From: Candidatus Multivoradales bacterium
Lineage (GTDB): Bacteria > Acidobacteriota > Thermoanaerobaculia > Multivoradales > JAHEKO01
Direction: 5' to 3'
Assembly: GCA_965223155.1 (NCBI GenBank)
Contig: CBDCVR010000013.1
Coordinates: forward strand, 320,001 to 384,000
DNA: 64,000 bases
Both the position numbers and the translations under genes were made by a program. Shown piece after piece: positions 6,821 through 32,269 of the stretch. Position 1 is the stretch's first letter; the number at the start of each line of letters is the position of its first letter. A model generated the notes under the pieces. That model did not search any database and was not told the origin of the DNA. It was given only the letters and a program-made list of their open reading frames with translations.

Positions 6821-9277
6821 CTACGTCTCGACGCCGAGGAAGGTATAGAGCGACAGGAGGACGAAGGCCAGGGCCGGGGTCCACACCGCCAGCGGCGCGG
6901 GTAGGGCGCCGGTTTCGCCCAGGGTGGTGCAGAACGCCACCGTGGCCATGAAGATCATGCCCAGGATGAGGCCGATGCCGACGCCGTAGAGGGCTCCCTT
7001 GCGGCCCAGGCGGAACGCGAAGGGCAAGGCCACCAGCGCCATGACCGCGAAGGTGGCGGGCCGGCTGACCTTGGATTGGAGCTGGGTTTTCAAGTCGGGC
7101 ACCGCTTGACCGCTGGATTCGAGCTCGCCGATGTAGCGTTTGAGAGCGGGGTAGGAGAGGGTGTCCGGAGTTCGGATCTCGGACTCGAAGAACTCCGGCG
7201 ACTCGGGGAAGTCCACGATGACCGGCCGGTCGAAGCGTTGATAGGTGGTGGTCTCGAGCCCGTCGAAGGAGCGGATCCAGGTGTCGTGAAAGAGCCAGCC
7301 GTCGCCGACCCAGCGCGCTCGCTCGGAGTAGAGACGGCTTTCCAGACGGTGATTCGAGTCGAACTCGAAGACCTGGAGCTTGTGCAGCTCTTTGCGCTCG
7401 CCGTCGTAGTTCAGGTAGTTGTAGATGTAGCGGTCCTGCCCGAAGAGCCAGTTGCGATCGCCGCGCCGGTAGGTCCGGACCACCTTCTTGCCGCGAATGA
7501 CGTCGTTCAACTGGGCGGCCCGCTGATTGGCGGCGGGCAGGATGCGTTCTTGCACCCAGGCTCCCAGAACCGAGATCACCAGGGCCGCGGCCAGGGCCGG
7601 CAGCGCCAGGCGGTACAGGCTCACTCCGGAAGCCTTGGCTGCGACCACCTCGTTGCGCTTCGCGAGCACGCCGAAGACCGCCAGCGTGGTCAGGAGCACC
7701 GAGATCGGGGTCACCTCGTAGGCGATCTGGAGAGACTGGTACTTGAAGTAGTCGAGCACCACCTCGAGCGGCACGTTGTTGTCCAAGATCTCGTCGATGA
7801 GTTCGGTCAGATTCGAGACCGAAAAGACGGCCAGGGCCGAGAGCAGGACCAAAGCAAACGTGCTGGCGAAGTGGCGGATGACGTAGCGGTCGAGCCGGTT
7901 CGGAAAGCGCATGGTCCAGCGGGGGAGACGGAGCACGACGCCGCCGTTGGCCGCATCTTCAGGGGCCGCCCCGGAAGGGCCTTCGGAACCCGGGGAGGCC
8001 ATGGAAACCGTGGAATCCAGGGTCCGGCGGGCCGCCTGCCGGGCCCGTTGGCGGCGGCTGGCACGCCGATCGGCGCGGCGAATGCGCAGGGCGCCGAGCA
8101 GCTTTCCGAAGAGCGGCGCCACCCGAGTCCTCAAGGCCAGGTCCAGTTTCTTGGGCAAGAGCGGCAGGTCGTCATTCTTGCGAAAGAGCAGCACCAGCCC
8201 GAGTGTCGCGAGGACCAGGTTGGGCAGCCACATGGCGAGCCACGCCGGCATGCGGTCGAACCGGGCCGCCTCCTCGCCATTGCTGAGCAGAACGTAGTAG
8301 ACGATGATGACCAAGATCGACAGCGCGAATCCGGTGGCGCGGCCGCCGCGCACCCGTTGGATTCCGAGCGGTACCGCCAAAAGGCCGAAGACCAGGCAAG
8401 CGACCGGGATCGAGAACTTCTTGTGGATCTCGACGTTCGAGAGGTTGCGGAGCTCGTCGGGCAGGTTGGGATCCGTTCGCCGTTGGCGCAGCTCCGAGAT
8501 CGTCAGCTCGCGTAGACCCTTGGTCGCTTGGCGACGGAGATTCAACTCGGCGAGAGGGTCTTCCAGGACCTGATCGACCTCGTCGTAGCGGCTGGTGTCG
8601 TACTGGTCGGGCGTCTGGAAATCCACCTTGTGGCTGACCACGTCCTCGAGCTCCAGAACCAATTGGTGCGGGTTGTCGGGATCGGCACGAATGATGCCGC
8701 GGTCGGCGACGCTGGTTTCGTTGTCGAGCCCGGCTTGAGTCCGGGCGACGAAGACGCCCTCCCAGGGATCAGTGCTTCCCGGTACCGATTCGAAGACGTA
8801 GACGATAAGGCCGATCCATTCCTCGTAGAAGACCCGGGGCTCGACCTGTTCGGCTACCGAACGGGCGATGATCTCGCGTCGCAGCTCCTGGAGGGCGGCG
8901 TTGCCGCGAGGCAGGAGATAGAGGGTTAGGGCCATGTTGATGAGCGTCAGGAAGGCGCCGACCCAGAGGACGGGCTTGAGCACGGCGAAATAGCTGATTC
9001 CGGTCGAGCGCATGGCGGTGAGCTCGCTGTCGCCCGAGAGCCGTCCGGTCGAGACCAGAACCGCGAACAGAAAGGCCATGGGGATGGTCAGGACCACGAT
9101 GTTCGGCAAGGTGGCGACCAAGAGCTTGCCGACCAGCTCGGCGGGCACCCCTCGCCGGATGATCATCTCGGCCGACGAAAACAGGAAGTTCGTCAGGAGC
9201 AGAAAGGTATAGGCCAGAAGACCCAGCGCCAGCGGGCCCGAGATCTCGGAGACGAGGTAGCGGTCGAGTCGCTTCAT
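6821..9277 (-). CDS. Fused LptF-LptG LPS export ABC permease
   Basis: Two tandem YjgP/YjgQ units (MKRLDRYL...DSELTAMRSTG; RLDRYVIR...NEVVAAKASG) in one 818-aa ORF. Confidence 0.92.
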   Translation of the reverse strand: MKRLDRYLVSEISGPLALGLLAYTFLLLTNFLFSSAEMIIRRGVPAELVGKLLVATLPNIVVLTIPMAFLFAVLVSTGRLSGDSELTAMRSTGISYFAVLKPVLWVGAFLTLINMALTLYLLPRGNAALQELRREIIARSVAEQVEPRVFYEEWIGLIVYVFESVPGSTDPWEGVFVARTQAGLDNETSVADRGIIRADPDNPHQLVLELEDVVSHKVDFQTPDQYDTSRYDEVDQVLEDPLAELNLRRQATKGLRELTISELRQRRTDPNLPDELRNLSNVEIHKKFSIPVACLVFGLLAVPLGIQRVRGGRATGFALSILVIIVYYVLLSNGEEAARFDRMPAWLAMWLPNLVLATLGLVLLFRKNDDLPLLPKKLDLALRTRVAPLFGKLLGALRIRRADRRASRRQRARQAARRTLDSTVSMASPGSEGPSGAAPEDAANGGVVLRLPRWTMRFPNRLDRYVIRHFASTFALVLLSALAVFSVSNLTELIDEILDNNVPLEVVLDYFKYQSLQIAYEVTPISVLLTTLAVFGVLAKRNEVVAAKASGVSLYRLALPALAAALVISVLGAWVQERILPAANQRAAQLNDVIRGKKVVRTYRRGDRNWLFGQDRYIYNYLNYDGERKELHKLQVFEFDSNHRLESRLYSERARWVGDGWLFHDTWIRSFDGLETTTYQRFDRPVIVDFPESPEFFESEIRTPDTLSYPALKRYIGELESSGQAVPDLKTQLQSKVSRPATFAVMALVALPFAFRLGRKGALYGVGIGLILGMIFMATVAFCTTLGETGALPAPLAVWTPALAFVLLSLYTFLGVET

Positions 9278-10131: not shown

Positions 10132-10322
10132 AGAAAGCCAAGTGTATAGGGATCCTTGGCGTAGAAGACACAAGCTGCTCGCCCCACGTTGAGTCCGATA
10201 AGATAGATTATGTCAACTTCAGCCCCAATCGGATGCTGGCTCCGCCTTCCGGCTTATGCCCTGCCGCACCATTCTGGATAGGCACCCCCTCCCCTGGGCA
10301 CACGGGCCAGTCCCACACGCGT

Positions 10323-10911
10323 CTACGAATAGAGATCGCCGGACAGGTAGCGCAGGCCGGAATCGACGATCACGGTGACGACGATCTTGCCCGGTCCGAG
10401 AGCGCGTGCTCGCTCCAGTGCGGCCCACACGTTCGCTCCGGAAGTGCTGCCGCCGAGAATCCCTGTTGACCTGGTCTGGCCAAAAGGTGCCCGGCTCCCC
10501 GACGAAGTCTCGCGTGCGGGCGATCATGCGATCGATGACGCCGGCAGTCAGGATCCCACCCTCGGCCGGCACAATCTCCACTGTGGCGCCGAAAGCGCGC
10601 ATGGTTTGGAGCTTTTCGGCCGAAAAGCCGTCCGAGGACACGAAATACGCACGATAACCCCGCTGGGCGCAGACCATAGCCAGGGAACTCCCGGTGCTGC
10701 CGCCTGTGTACTCGATGACTCGACCGCCGGCTGCCAGCTCGCCTCGGCTCTCGGCTCCTCGAATCATGGAGAGCGCCATGCGGTCCTTCATGCTGCCGGT
10801 GGGATTCGCTCCTTCGAGCTTGACGTATACGCTCGCCGACTCCGGCCCGGCCAGCCGTCGCAGCTTCACCATGGGCGTGCTGCCGATGCTCTGGAGTCGT
10901 CCGCCGCTCAC
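10323..10911 (-). pseudogene. Cysteine synthase (CysK/CysM family) with internal deletion and frameshift
   Basis: N-terminal 149 aa (KLEGANPTGSMKDR, TGGSTG) joins out of frame at ~10464 to the C-terminal GILGGSTSGANVWAA...VIVDSGLRYLSGDLYS*; the GTGGT region is missing. Confidence 0.85.
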
Positions 10912-10965: not shown

Positions 10966-11841
10966 TTAGGACTCGTCTTCGCTCTTCAGCCGATCCAGAA
11001 TCGTTTCGAGCGCCTGGATCACGTCCGCCTTCTCCACGTCCTGCTGCCGGAACTTGAGCGACACCCGGAAGTTCTTGTCCGGGTCGCGGAAGGTGAAGCT
11101 GGGGGTGGACGGACCGCCTCGTCTCTGCGGCTGGCGCTTCCGGGCCCGCACCTGGTCCCGGAGCCCCTCGCGGTCGATCTCACGGGCGGCAAAGGCTTCG
11201 ACGAGATGGATCTGGTCGGCTTCGGAGGCGCCGGCCTTCTCGATCTCGAGGAGGACCGACTTCGTCGTCACCCCCAGGGCATCAGCGGCGTCCCGCACAC
11301 GCTGTCCGAGCTTCAAGAGCTGAAGGCTCTCGGTCACCGAGCTCCGCGACTTGCTGATCGCGGAGGCGATTTGCTCGTGGGTATAGCCGTGGATCTCCCC
11401 CAACGCACGGTAGCCTTCGGCTTCCTCGAACGGAGTCAGGTCCTTGCGCTGGAGGTTTTCGATGAGAGCGATCTCCAGGGCTTCGTCTTCCTCGACGTCC
11501 ATGATGATGGCAGGGATCTCGTCACTCTCCAGAGCCTGGGCGGCCTGGAACCGGCGCTCGCCGGAGATGATCCGGTAACGTCGGCCGTGGCGAGCTTCCA
11601 GCTCCTCCAGAGGCCGGACCAGAATCGGCTCCAAGACACCCTTGTCCCGGATGGATTCGACCAGCTCGTGCAGGTCTCCCATCGTGCTTCGCGGCTGGTT
11701 GGGGTCGGGCTCGATGGCCGACATCGGCAGCATGCGGCCGATGCTTTCGCTCGGCGTGCGCTCGACCAGCTCGTCAACGAAATGTTGGTCGTGCCGCATC
11801 TTGACGCGGAGCGGCAGGCCGCGCTTGCTGGTTTCAGACAC
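10966..11841 (-). CDS. parB: ParB/Spo0J family CTP-dependent partition protein
   Basis: PNQPR, GVLEPILVR, ISGERRFQAA (CTP motif), ALIENLQRKDL, HTH HEQIASAISKSRSSVTESL. Confidence 0.93.
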   Translation of the reverse strand: MSETSKRGLPLRVKMRHDQHFVDELVERTPSESIGRMLPMSAIEPDPNQPRSTMGDLHELVESIRDKGVLEPILVRPLEELEARHGRRYRIISGERRFQAAQALESDEIPAIIMDVEEDEALEIALIENLQRKDLTPFEEAEGYRALGEIHGYTHEQIASAISKSRSSVTESLQLLKLGQRVRDAADALGVTTKSVLLEIEKAGASEADQIHLVEAFAAREIDREGLRDQVRARKRQPQRRGGPSTPSFTFRDPDKNFRVSLKFRQQDVEKADVIQALETILDRLKSEDES

Positions 11842-12592
11842 GGCTCAGAACCTCCTCGGACAGCTTGTAGTACTCGAAGGCCCCGCTCGAGCGGGGCGAA
11901 AACGTGAAGATCGATTCCCGGTAGGCCGGGCTCTCTTCCAGCCGGACGCTCTTCGAGATGACGGTATCGAAGAGCTTCTTGCCGAAAACCTGCGAGACCT
12001 GCTCGCGAATGTCCCTGGAGAGCTTGGTGCGCTTGTCGAAGAGGGTCAGCACCGCCCCCAGAAGCTGAAGCTGGGGGTTGGTGCGGTACTTGATCTTGTC
12101 GATGGTCTCGAGCAGGTCGTCCGTGCCTTCGAGCGCGTAGTAGCTCGACTGGATCGGGATCAAGACGTGGGTCGCGGCCGCGAGCGCGTTGACCGTGATG
12201 ATTCCCAGCGTCGGGGGCGTGTCGATGACGATGTGCTCCCAGCGCCGGCGAACGGGCTTGATCGAGTCCTTGAGACGGTAGAAGCTGTCGATCTCGCCCA
12301 TGAGCTTGGCTTCCACCTTGGCCAGGCTGATTGAAGCCGGGGCGACCCAGAGGTTCGAGACGCTATCGACCTCCTGCACGACCTCGGGAAAGCCGATGTC
12401 CGGATCGGTCAGGACGTGGTAGACGGAGCGTTCGGTGCCGTCGAGATCCAGAAATGACAGGGAGCTGTTGGCCTGCGGGTCCAAGTCGATCAGCAGGGTT
12501 TTCTGCCCCTTGGAAGCGAACGCCGCGGCCAAGTTGATGGCGGTCGTGGTCTTCCCCACCCCGCCTTTTTGGTTGGTAATCGCGACGATCAT
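11834..12592 (-). CDS. parA: ParA/Soj family ATPase
   Basis: Deviant Walker A NQKGGVGKTT, DLDPQAN, IDTPP, SVRLEESP; overlaps the parB start. Confidence 0.96.
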   Translation of the reverse strand: MIVAITNQKGGVGKTTTAINLAAAFASKGQKTLLIDLDPQANSSLSFLDLDGTERSVYHVLTDPDIGFPEVVQEVDSVSNLWVAPASISLAKVEAKLMGEIDSFYRLKDSIKPVRRRWEHIVIDTPPTLGIITVNALAAATHVLIPIQSSYYALEGTDDLLETIDKIKYRTNPQLQLLGAVLTLFDKRTKLSRDIREQVSQVFGKKLFDTVISKSVRLEESPAYRESIFTFSPRSSGAFEYYKLSEEVLSRV

Positions 12593-12603
12593 CCGTCGGG
12601 CGC

Positions 12604-12632
12604 AGTGTATGGAACCGGCCCGAACGGGTCAA
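12604..12632 (-). promoter_or_regulatory. sigma70-type promoter of parAB
   Basis: TTGACC-17 bp-TACACT, 11 nt before the parA ATG, no Shine-Dalgarno. Confidence 0.7.
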
Positions 12633-12681
12633 CTGGCAATAGGCGCGACTGCGTGGGCGCTCGAACGGGCTCGGTCGTGCC

Positions 12682-12701
12682 AATGTCGGCATGCCGACAT
12701 T
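12682..12701. promoter_or_regulatory. Perfect 20-bp palindrome AATGTCGGCATGCCGACATT, candidate parS-like or operator site
   Basis: Exact dyad symmetry with no spacer, intergenic, about 50 bp upstream of the parAB -35 box; function inferred. Confidence 0.6.
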
Positions 12702-12744
12702 CGAGCCAAGCCGCTGACCCGGAGGGACTTGCGGCTTGCCGGGA

Positions 12745-13257
12745 CTACATTTCGTACTTGCCGAAGTCCTCGGGCTTGGCTTCTTCGAGCCACTTCTTGA
12801 GACGCTCTTCGTCGGCGACGCGCTCGCTCAAGCCTTCGACTTGGGCCTTTTCGAAGACGTCTTCGTCCACGAAGAGCGGCGCGTCGGCTCGCAGCGCAAG
12901 GGCGATGGCGTCGGACGGGCGAGAATCCACGGTGCGGGCCCCGAACGACCCGTCAAGGTGGATTTCGGCAAAGAATGTGCTGTCTCGAAGATCGGTCACG
13001 ACGACCTTCGAGACCGAGGCGTCCACCTCCACAAGCAAATTGCGCAGCAGATCGTGAGTCAGCGGCCGGGGCGCATCGACGTCTTCGAGGAAGAGGGCAA
13101 TTGCCTGGGCCTCGAAGACGCCGATCCAGATCGGCAAATAGCGCTCGCCGTCGGCGTCATGGAGCACGACGATCGGGAGGTTGCTGCTGGGATCCAGCAT
13201 CAGGCCGCGAACCTCGACCAGGACTCGATCGTGGGAGCTGCCGCCGTCGTCGGTCAT
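12745..13257 (-). CDS. Bifunctional nuclease family protein (DUF151)
   Basis: LPIWIGVFEAQAI, RPLTHDL, DSRPSDAIALALR. Confidence 0.93.
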   Translation of the reverse strand: MTDDGGSSHDRVLVEVRGLMLDPSSNLPIVVLHDADGERYLPIWIGVFEAQAIALFLEDVDAPRPLTHDLLRNLLVEVDASVSKVVVTDLRDSTFFAEIHLDGSFGARTVDSRPSDAIALALRADAPLFVDEDVFEKAQVEGLSERVADEERLKKWLEEAKPEDFGKYEM

Positions 13258-13317: not shown

Positions 13318-14739
13318 TCAGCAGGCGATGACGGCAAGCGCCGGTGCAGGCCGCTCGCTCAAGCGGCCAATCAAGCTGTGCGGCAGCGCCTGCTCGATGC
13401 GCACCGGCACGATCTCGCCCACCGGGATGGCGCTTCCTCCGTCGAGGGGAAAGTGCGCGACCCGATGGCAGGGAGTCCGTCCGGTCTGGGTGCCCGGGCG
13501 CTTGCCCCAGCCGGTGACCAGGACCTCCAGGGTGGAGCCGACGAGCGCCTGGTTCAGTCGGAGCTGGATCGGTTCCTGGGCCCGGAACAGTTTCTGGAGT
13601 CGGCGATCCGCGACCTCGGCCGCGACCGGAGGCCCCAGCTTGGGGGCCGCGGTTCCCGGACGGGGCGAGTACTTGAAGGCGAAGATGGAGCTGAACTCGA
13701 GCTCGTGGACCAGGGCCAGGGTGCGTTCGAACTCGGCTTCAGTCTCCCCCGGAAATCCCACGATGAGGTCGGTCGAGAGCGCCAGGTCCGGCCGAGCCGC
13801 GCGCAGGTCCGCCACCAGCTCCCGGTAGCTCTCGATGGTGTAACCCCGTCCCATCCGGTGCAGGACCTCGTTCGAGCCCGACTGGACGGGCAAGTGGAGA
13901 TAGGGACTGATATTGGCGTGGCGGCCCACCTGCTCCACCATGCGCGGCGTGAAGTCGCGTGGGTACGAGGTGACGAAGCGCAGGCGGTCGACACCCGGAA
14001 TGGTGGCCACCCGGTCCAGGAGATCCGCGAAGTCGCCGGCGCCGTCGGGATCGACCCAGTGGTTCACGGTCTGGCCCAGGAGCTCGATCTCCCGGAAGCC
14101 GAACTCCACCAGGTGCCGAACCTCGGCGAGTACGTCGCTCATGGTCCGGCTCAGCTCTGGACCCCGCGTCTGGGGCACGATGCAGAACGTGCAGTTCTTG
14201 TTGCAGCCCTCGATGATCGTAACCATGCCCTTGAAGGAGCCGTCCCGGGCAATCGCATTCAGGTCGTAGTCGCGATCCTCGGGAAAGCCGACCGCCACCA
14301 CCCGCTCGCCGGCACGGCGGCGGTCCAGCACGTCCAGAATCTCCCCGACCCGGGCGGGACCCAGGACGAAGTCCAGATCGGGCACTCGCCGCAGGGCACG
14401 CTCCCCCGCCTCCTGGGCGACGCATCCGCACAGGCCGATGGCGAGGTGCGGCCGATCGGCCTTCAAACGCCGGTACTCGCCCAGCCGGGAATAGACCTTC
14501 TGCTCGGCCTTCTCGCGGACGCTACAGGAATTGAGCAGGATGAGATCGGCATCGGCCGGGGCGCGCGTCGGCAGGAATCCCGCCTCCATCAGCTTGCCCG
14601 CCAGGCGCTGGCTGTCGAGCTCGTTCATCTGGCAGCCCCAGGTCTCGACGAAAAAGCGCCGGCCGCTACTCGGGACCGCGTCCGACGGAACCTGGTCCGA
14701 TTCGGGGCTGGCCGGGCGAGCCTGCTGGTCAGTCTCCAT
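13318..14739 (-). CDS. miaB: tRNA-2-methylthio-N6-dimethylallyladenosine synthase
   Basis: ETWGCQMNELDS, NSCSVREKAE, radical-SAM GCNKNCTFCIVP, HLPVQSGS, C-terminal TRAM domain. Confidence 0.96.
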   Translation of the reverse strand: METDQQARPASPESDQVPSDAVPSSGRRFFVETWGCQMNELDSQRLAGKLMEAGFLPTRAPADADLILLNSCSVREKAEQKVYSRLGEYRRLKADRPHLAIGLCGCVAQEAGERALRRVPDLDFVLGPARVGEILDVLDRRRAGERVVAVGFPEDRDYDLNAIARDGSFKGMVTIIEGCNKNCTFCIVPQTRGPELSRTMSDVLAEVRHLVEFGFREIELLGQTVNHWVDPDGAGDFADLLDRVATIPGVDRLRFVTSYPRDFTPRMVEQVGRHANISPYLHLPVQSGSNEVLHRMGRGYTIESYRELVADLRAARPDLALSTDLIVGFPGETEAEFERTLALVHELEFSSIFAFKYSPRPGTAAPKLGPPVAAEVADRRLQKLFRAQEPIQLRLNQALVGSTLEVLVTGWGKRPGTQTGRTPCHRVAHFPLDGGSAIPVGEIVPVRIEQALPHSLIGRLSERPAPALAVIAC

Positions 14740-32183: not shown

Positions 32184-32269
32184 GCCGGAGTGGCGGAATG
32201 GCAGACGCGACGGACTCAAAATCCGTTGTCCGCAAGGGCGTGGGGGTTCGAGTCCCCCCTCCGGCACCA
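32184..32269 (+). tRNA. tRNA-Leu (anticodon CAA)
   Basis: Acceptor stem GCCGGAG/CTCCGGC, D-loop GGAATGGCAGAC, ACGGA-CTCAAAA-TCCGT anticodon arm, long variable arm, GTTCGAGTC, encoded CCA. Confidence 0.98.

Follow-up and report, generated by a model that had tools for sequence, protein, structure and literature searches.

A conserved palindrome at the parAB locus of Acidobacteriota, a candidate parS-like site for a ParB with altered DNA-contact residues

The stretch of DNA analysed here, 64,000 nucleotides of Candidatus Multivoradales bacterium (contig CBDCVR010000013.1, positions 320,001 to 384,000; the whole stretch is hereafter called the window), carries a parA-parB gene pair with a perfect 20-bp palindrome on its upstream side, which an earlier note on this DNA had proposed as a parS-like site of new specificity. 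We found that the palindrome is a genuine cis-element, conserved in linkage with parAB and encountered at 50 of 80 orthologous loci compared to 0.013 sites expected, and that the residues with which ParB would contact DNA are changed in all 80 relatives. Because of these two features, a parS-like site of new specificity is the best reading, and the proposal stands to this extent. Judging from sequence comparison, it is probable that ParB binds the palindrome and that the pair constitutes the chromosomal ParABS of this lineage with a reprogrammed parS. For the wider claim, that at least four classes of Acidobacteriota replaced the near-universal centromere and that their sole chromosomal ParB reads TGTCGGC-NN-GCCGACA by means of E178 and K201 (Caulobacter numbering) and with no R204, the balance tips only slightly in favour.

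The chromosomal parS is treated as nearly invariant in bacteria and is used to locate origins and centromeres in new genomes, and the Acidobacteriota are among the most abundant soil phyla. The parts of ParABS and its presumed mechanism are already known; what is new here is the site and the DNA-reading residues, both conserved across several classes. The literature searched contained no account of an acidobacterial parS or of this site as a centromere, and where the half-site sequences did occur in the literature, they belonged to primers, an attP sequence, or a spacer used in cloning.

Conservation and placement of the palindrome

The palindrome, AATGTCGGCATGCCGACATT, lies 44 nt 3' of the BFN/DUF151 stop codon and 90 nt 5' of the parA ATG (12592), and its 16-bp core, TGTCGGCATGCCGACA (12684-12699), reads TGTCGGC-AT-GCCGACA. 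The earlier note had described a perfect 20-bp palindrome about 50 bp 5' of the -35 box, and it was indeed encountered there, with approximately 59 nt between its centre and the -35 hexamer. The core was the only match at three or fewer mismatches in the 64-kb window, and exact copies of the consensus TGTCGGCNNGCCGACA would be expected 0.0008 times in the window from base composition.

Among 8000 scored candidates, 7850 were ParB relatives at E <= 0.001, and the 119 closest relatives bearing organism names (57-76% identity) were all named as Acidobacteriota or Thermoanaerobaculia. An alignment of 33 of these closest relatives was used to scan genome contigs, which yielded 80 loci; together with flanks of at most 10 kb per side, they amount to 1,234,304 bp. 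These loci were labelled Thermoanaerobaculia, Vicinamibacteria, Blastocatellia, Terriglobia, Holophagales, and Aminicenantes, and it was noted that a few of the metagenome-assembled genomes (MAGs) are clearly misnamed.

Across the 80 loci, the consensus was found in 59 exact copies, and the other 209 permutations of its 7-base arm gave 4 such palindromes altogether. In a blind tally of every palindrome with two 7-base arms and a 2-base centre, this arm ranked first with 50 loci, and the second-ranking arm occurred in 13. Three additional loci (L011, L033, and L066) carried the site with one arm mismatch, again at the conserved locations. Chance was considered as an explanation and is ruled out by the conservation across loci, although the window match taken alone is unremarkable at three or fewer mismatches, a tolerance at which at least one match was recorded in 41 of 100 shuffles.

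The placement of the site was characteristic of individual clades. In the clade of the window, it was always located in the spacer between BFN and parA, 808-954 nt 5' of the parB start. The site lies inside parB, at +510 to +531, in Vicinamibacteria, Thermoanaerobaculales, and some of the Blastocatellia, and both positions were occupied in four loci. A Blastocatellia subgroup, in which the internal copy was lost, has a copy between the convergent accA and ssb, approximately 5 kb upstream, and single copies were recorded directly 3' of parB (L079) or after lptG (L064). It was noted that the site adjoins parA despite a 3-kb insertion between BFN and parA in one locus (L001) and despite relocated miaB and lptFG genes in two others (L020 and L025). 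The central two bases varied by clade (GC, AT, CG, or TG), as would be expected if a symmetric dimer reads only the two arms. As a side observation, a conserved TTTA or TTAC was present 8-11 nt before the core in many Thermoanaerobaculia loci (L003-L030), and this feature was not found in the window.

The copies inside parB read TGT CGG xxx GCC GAC ATx and encode C-R-x-A-D-I, which corresponds to residues 186-191 of the window ParB, a segment that follows the recognition helix and precedes the next helix in contact with DNA. Among the 22 ParBs with an internal site, the codons TGT (Cys), CGG (Arg), and GAC (Asp) were each used in 22 of 22 and GCC (Ala) in 21 of 22, compared to backgrounds of 9%, 25%, 68%, and 43%, respectively, in the same genes, and the middle codon varied (CTG, CGC, or CAT). 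These 22 ParBs are 42-49% identical to the query and derive from several classes, and they are to be counted as related sequences and not as 22 independent events. This codon usage indicates that selection at the intra-parB sites acts on the DNA and not on the protein.

DNA-contacting residues of ParB and the proposed mechanism

ParB was matched by the Pfam models ParB_N (4e-26) and HTH_ParB (1.8e-13) and scored 143.5 bits against TIGR00180 (cut-off 58.45), and its 144 bits against the Noc model TIGR04285 fell below the cut-off of 315. The nearest solved relatives of ParB are chromosomal Spo0J/ParB/Noc proteins, and those of ParA are chromosomal ParA/Soj proteins (8ray, 9e-57; Thermus Soj 1wcv, 3e-52). 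An AlphaFold2 model of ParB had a mean pLDDT of 80.4, and Foldseek searches with this model returned Noc, ParB, and Spo0J as the top matches, with Noc 7nfu as the best (4e-15). Residues 195-291 were matched by no Pfam model, this segment is conserved among the relatives, and two strands and a long helix were predicted at 248-290 (pLDDT 67-80). The N-terminal peptide of ParB reads KRGLPxRVKMRHD. Every one of the ParB motifs quoted by the earlier note (GERRFQA, ENLQRKDL, KSRSSVTESLQLLKL, TTKSVLL, and KRGLPLRVKMRHD) was located in the translation.

We found that the changes relative to canonical ParB fall on known DNA contacts. HMMER alignments to Thermus Spo0J and Myxococcus ParB (KARSTVANALRLL and KERSTVANALRLL) placed T170-E171 opposite the A-N of VAN, and the alignment to the DNA-binding domain of B. 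subtilis Noc (6y93) placed TTKSVLLEI opposite TERHARALI. The equivalents in Caulobacter numbering are R166 = R173, E171 = N178, K177 = A184, K194 = G201 (Noc R186), and L197 = R204, so that the canonical DNA-contact residues N178, G201, and R204 are replaced by E171, K194, and L197, and R173 is retained as R166. These alignments bear out the earlier note, which had named the same segments as altered, and the alteration extends to all 80 relatives. All 80 ParBs have a recognition helix of the form KSR..(V/I)(T/A/S)E.(L/M/F), with T in 75, instead of VAN. At the position where canonical ParB has GHAR, 78 of the 80 carry a K-centred, serine-rich motif (S/T/A/N-K-S/A/G, mostly SKS); SPS or SRS was recorded in L020, L025, and L078, and GHAR in none of the 80.

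Passages of Jalal 2020 (PMC7383237) state that R173 hydrogen-bonds guanine 1 of parS, that N178 and R204 touch DNA and are conserved in ParB and Noc alike, that the Noc arginine at position 201 reads guanine -6, and that positions 173, 179, 184, and 201 determine specificity. Written in the numbering of Jalal, the half-site of the palindrome is G1 T2 C3 G4 G5 C6 N7, in which G1 is kept, as R173 is in the protein; C6:G-6 is as in the Noc-binding site (NBS), and position 201 has a basic residue; and positions 3-5 are changed, with N178 and R204 replaced. This putative correspondence between residues and bases is coherent.

The proposed system would be a vertically inherited chromosomal ParABS of Acidobacteriota, the centromere of which would have shifted from the near-universal TGTTNCACGTGAAACA to TGTCGGC-NN-GCCGACA. 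A ParB dimer would engage each 7-bp arm with one of its recognition helices and leave the central 2 bp unread. The retained R166 would read the retained G of the outer TGT, and the changed inner bases (CGGC for TTCA) would be read by E171, which stands for N178, and K194, which stands for G201, with R204 lost; K194 would occupy the position at which the Noc arginine reads guanine. Binding of the site would lead to CTP-dependent clamp closure and sliding by way of the intact GERRxxA and ENLQR motifs, and the Soj-type ParA would move the complex of ParB and site. Since the parAB promoter follows the site closely, the loading of ParB may also dampen expression of parAB itself. In this scheme, we infer ParB as the binder, the assignment of residues to bases, the clamp and segregation steps, and the status as the sole chromosomal system.

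Counter-evidence and alternative explanations

Several observations weigh against the palindrome as the ParB-bound centromere of this lineage. The window holds a single site in its whole 64 kb, and half-sites were not enriched (18, compared to 15.5 +/- 3.4 expected); degenerate full sites with a free centre numbered 2, compared to 7.8 expected. No dnaA was found in the 64-kb window, and the flat GC skew of the window was uninformative for origin placement. Among the loci with enough sequence, 19 had no site within 10 kb; these fall in two clades, with 12 labelled Thermoanaerobaculia and 7 of Terriglobia type, and the recognition residues of their ParBs are unchanged. A location beside parAB is therefore not universal for the site. 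A search of the two clades for an alternative shared palindrome (arms of 6-8, spacers of 0-6) returned only coding-conserved syntenic repeats in one and nothing in Terriglobia. Either the sites of these clades are farther off, or the link between site and ParB is looser than proposed. Two further points of this kind, the identity of the consensus with a published operator and the extension of some copies into longer palindromes, each belong to an alternative explanation.

The 16-bp consensus of the palindrome is identical, letter for letter, to the operator of CooA, a CRP/FNR-family activator, as its box in Desulfovibrio and Rhodospirillum rubrum is given in a passage of PMC545781 (TGTCGGCnnGCCGACA). 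A different helix-turn-helix protein is thus able to read this sequence, and a CRP-type regulator is a real rival: the palindrome would be an operator of CooA-like specificity that controls parAB, with ParB not binding it. The consensus being in print speaks for this explanation, as does the constant location of the site 5' of the parA promoter in the clade of the window. However, a -35 hexamer was found in 25 of 27 loci (none in L001 and L065), and the distance to its start from the palindrome centre spanned 10 to 95 nt and showed no preferred phase, unlike class I and class II activator sites. In other classes, the copies sit within the parB frame, where synonymous positions are frozen, directly 3' of parB (L079), or between the convergent accA and ssb, and an activator site would be useless at such locations. 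The 46 window ORFs examined with Pfam included no CRP-family gene, CO-dehydrogenase gene, or coo gene, and parAB is the sole thing common to the sites. Control by a regulator of this family in place of ParB binding is, in our estimate, quite improbable.

In the second alternative, no protein would bind the palindrome, which would instead work as a nucleic-acid hairpin (a terminator or another structural element of RNA or DNA). At 12 of 60 sites, the perfect palindrome continues past the core for 4 to 12 or more bp, with flanks that are genome-specific; the longest of these palindromes (40 bp) are located between the convergent accA and ssb, and the window site follows the BFN stop codon at a short distance. 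In contrast, the 14 arm bases are invariant across classes, where a structural hairpin would allow compensatory changes, and 31 of the 60 sites have no extension at all. The intra-parB sites cannot be terminators, a search for T-run terminators at 12400-12900 returned 0, and the palindrome forms no hairpin of its own in the minimum-free-energy RNA fold of the spacer. A hairpin in place of a protein-binding site is accordingly the least credible of the alternatives and is regarded as very improbable. Since 12 of the 60 sites are embedded in longer palindromes with differing flanks, some copies probably also form hairpins, perhaps terminators between convergent genes.

Sites centred in perfect palindromes of 32-40 bp were recorded in L048 (4780-4819), L051 (~4929), L060 (~4881), L076 (~3719), and L047 (~239), with flanks that differ between genomes. 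In L048, accA and ssb, as assigned by Pfam, converge on the site beside dnaE and a recN-like gene, and the flanking ORFs of L060, which are known by size and strand alone, match those of L048 in both respects. The arrangement of the L048 type resembles a hairpin, or a terminator acting in both directions, with the site at its centre. In the window, a separate G+C-rich hairpin (GGCAAGCCGC...GCGGCTTGGC; 12702-12742, minus-strand transcript) was observed between the BFN stop codon and the palindrome; it has no T-run and may be the BFN terminator.

Under a third possibility, favoured by the earlier note, the genome would also have a canonical origin-linked parAB/parS, and the pair described here would form a second, orthogonal ParABS-like clamp system, possibly with a role other than origin segregation. 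The site does differ from canonical parS, and the neighbours are not mnmG, rsmG, or dnaA. The note's miaB and DUF151 were confirmed as neighbours by Pfam, but their value as a sign of an extra, non-origin system was lost when relatives were examined: the order BFN-parA-parB was found in 68 of the 80 loci, the remaining 12 end before the expected BFN position, and miaB lies 5' of BFN in most loci. The arrangement miaB-BFN-parA-parB is thus a conserved acidobacterial one across loci of four class names, which fits a core system passed on vertically and does not fit an add-on. Neither the window nor the 80 loci, with their flanks of up to 10 kb, showed another ParA or ParB; among solved structures, both proteins have chromosomal ones as nearest relatives, and the window holds core genes such as dnaB, priA, rpoN, accA, and metK.

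Canonical parS (TGTTNCACGTGAAACA) had 0 matches at three or fewer mismatches in the 64-kb window, and in the 80 loci it had 0 matches at one or fewer mismatches and 2 with two mismatches. The latter, TGTTGCACGTGAAATA, were observed in two close Blastocatellia relatives (L045, 6415-6430; L058, 6976-6991) at the same place just upstream of miaB, and may be chance kept by close kinship or a relic. Taken as a whole, the conserved synteny, the chromosomal type of the nearest relatives, and the lack of a second ParA or ParB in the window and the 80 loci speak against an additional system beside a canonical one, which we consider unlikely, and the preferred reading remains that of the lineage's own chromosomal ParABS.

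Genomic setting and comparison with known systems

The window is ordinary core chromosome with 66.7% G+C, in which metK, rpoN, lptB, recJ, accA, priA, carD, dnaB, and PTS genes are present. The minus-strand order, as assigned by Pfam, is miaB (~13318-14700), BFN/DUF151, parA, and parB, followed by a PALP gene, a DUF599 gene, and a fused lptF-lptG. The ORFs of parA and parB are intact and overlap by 8 nt (Table 1).

Table 1. Coordinates of the parAB region in the window, counted from its first nucleotide
Feature	Position	Strand	Remarks
parB	10966..11841	-	291 aa; ParB_N CTPase domain, ParB HTH, and lineage-specific C-terminal part
TTKSVLL codons (residues 192-198)	11248..11268	-	In place of the canonical GHARAL helix
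Recognition helix KSRSSVTESLQLLK codons (residues 164-177)	11311..11352	-	R166, T170, and E171 invariant in 33 relatives
ENLQRKDL codons (residues 128-135)	11437..11460	-	CTP-binding motif; invariant in 33 relatives
GERRFQA codons (residues 94-100)	11542..11562	-	CTP-binding motif; G94, E95, R96, R97, and A100 invariant in 33 relatives
parA	11834..12592	-	Soj-type ATPase, 252 aa, deviant Walker A KGGVGKT; AAA_31 7.5e-54 and CbiA
Sigma-70-like parAB promoter TTGACC-17-TACACT	12604..12632	-	-10 hexamer ends 11 nt before the parA ATG
Perfect 20-bp palindrome AATGTCGGCATGCCGACATT	12682..12701		BFN-parA spacer; proposed acidobacterial parS
BFN/DUF151 gene	12745..13257	-	BFN_dom 9.7e-41; upstream neighbour kept in relatives

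In agreement with the earlier note, which had given the intact pair a sigma70 promoter of its own, one promoter-like site was found, compared to a shuffle mean of 0.0, and most upstream regions examined (including L002-L030) keep TTGACC-N17-TA(C/G)ACT directly 5' of parA. It was noted that the -10 hexamer is separated from the parA ATG by only 8-11 nt in the window and in relatives, with no discernible Shine-Dalgarno sequence; a leaderless or almost leaderless parAB mRNA is probable.

The BFN/DUF151 nuclease-domain gene is immediately upstream of parA in all 68 loci that reach far enough, and a functional link between BFN and partition is conceivable. In L067 (9253-10005), parA was recovered in four tblastn pieces, and miaB and lptFG were fragmented too, which reflects either frameshifts of the MAG assembly or a decayed gene. 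In the window, LptF and LptG are fused in one 818-aa ORF (6821-9277, minus strand) with two LptF_LptG matches, and the relatives gave one long match in several cases and two separate matches in others. The PALP ORF (cysteine-synthase-like; 10219-10911, minus strand) covers the first 136 of 295 profile positions and continues into an Arg-rich tail before DUF599, and it may be truncated or frameshifted. Rfam models had no match in the parAB region; their single match in the window was a tRNA-Leu(CAA) at 32184-32269, the sole RNA gene found there.

Compared with the canonical ParABS of Bacillus subtilis, Caulobacter crescentus, and Thermus thermophilus, the acidobacterial locus has the same order of ParB_N and ParB HTH domains with intact GERRxxA and ENLQR motifs, the same Soj-type ParA with KGGVGKT directly upstream of and overlapping parB, and a 16-bp palindrome with outer TGT...ACA beside or inside parB. 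In B. subtilis, likewise, one parS is located inside spo0J. The acidobacterial locus differs in the inner half-site, which is CGGC(N) here and TTCA(C) in the canonical systems, and in the freedom of the central 2 bp. In ParB, E takes the place of N178, K of G201, and L of R204, the N-terminal peptide is another one, and the C-terminal third matches no Pfam model. If the preferred reading is true, canonical-motif searches would wrongly report Acidobacteriota as lacking parS. On the wider claim, an essential segregation protein and its sites would have switched specificity together, in nature, long ago, and completely.

The Noc-NBS system of Firmicutes (site TATTTCCCGGGAAATA) offers a parallel for such a switch, as Noc is a ParB paralogue in which specificity was reset by few residues in the same two helices, and the two systems have in common that residue 201 is basic and that site position 6 is C. 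However, R173 is kept here and is Q in Noc, G1 is kept here and is A in NBS, and the acidobacterial parB stands in an operon with ParA and is the conserved parB of its lineage, not a paralogue beside one (within 10 kb). If the preferred reading is true, the lineage would represent a natural end-point of a ParB specificity switch, comparable to the laboratory paths from ParB to Noc, with three concrete residues.

The likeness to the CooA operator is one of sequence, and the proposed binder belongs to another protein family; the CooA sites also hold a fixed position in coo promoters, whereas the spacing is free here. If ParB is the reader, this would be a convergence on a 16-mer read elsewhere by the CRP-family CooA, and the protein and its palindrome would form a ready-made orthogonal ParB/parS pair for DNA labelling.

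Other 13-16 bp palindromes are used by the ParBs of secondary replicons and plasmids, including Burkholderia chromosomes 2 and 3, Vibrio parS2, repABC, and KorB-OB. KorB is a weak relative of the acidobacterial ParB in sequence and in fold (8qa8, 1.7e-12; Foldseek 8qa9). Unlike those secondary systems, which reside on extra replicons beside a canonical system, the genes described here belong to the core chromosome, and their synteny is kept across the sampled classes.

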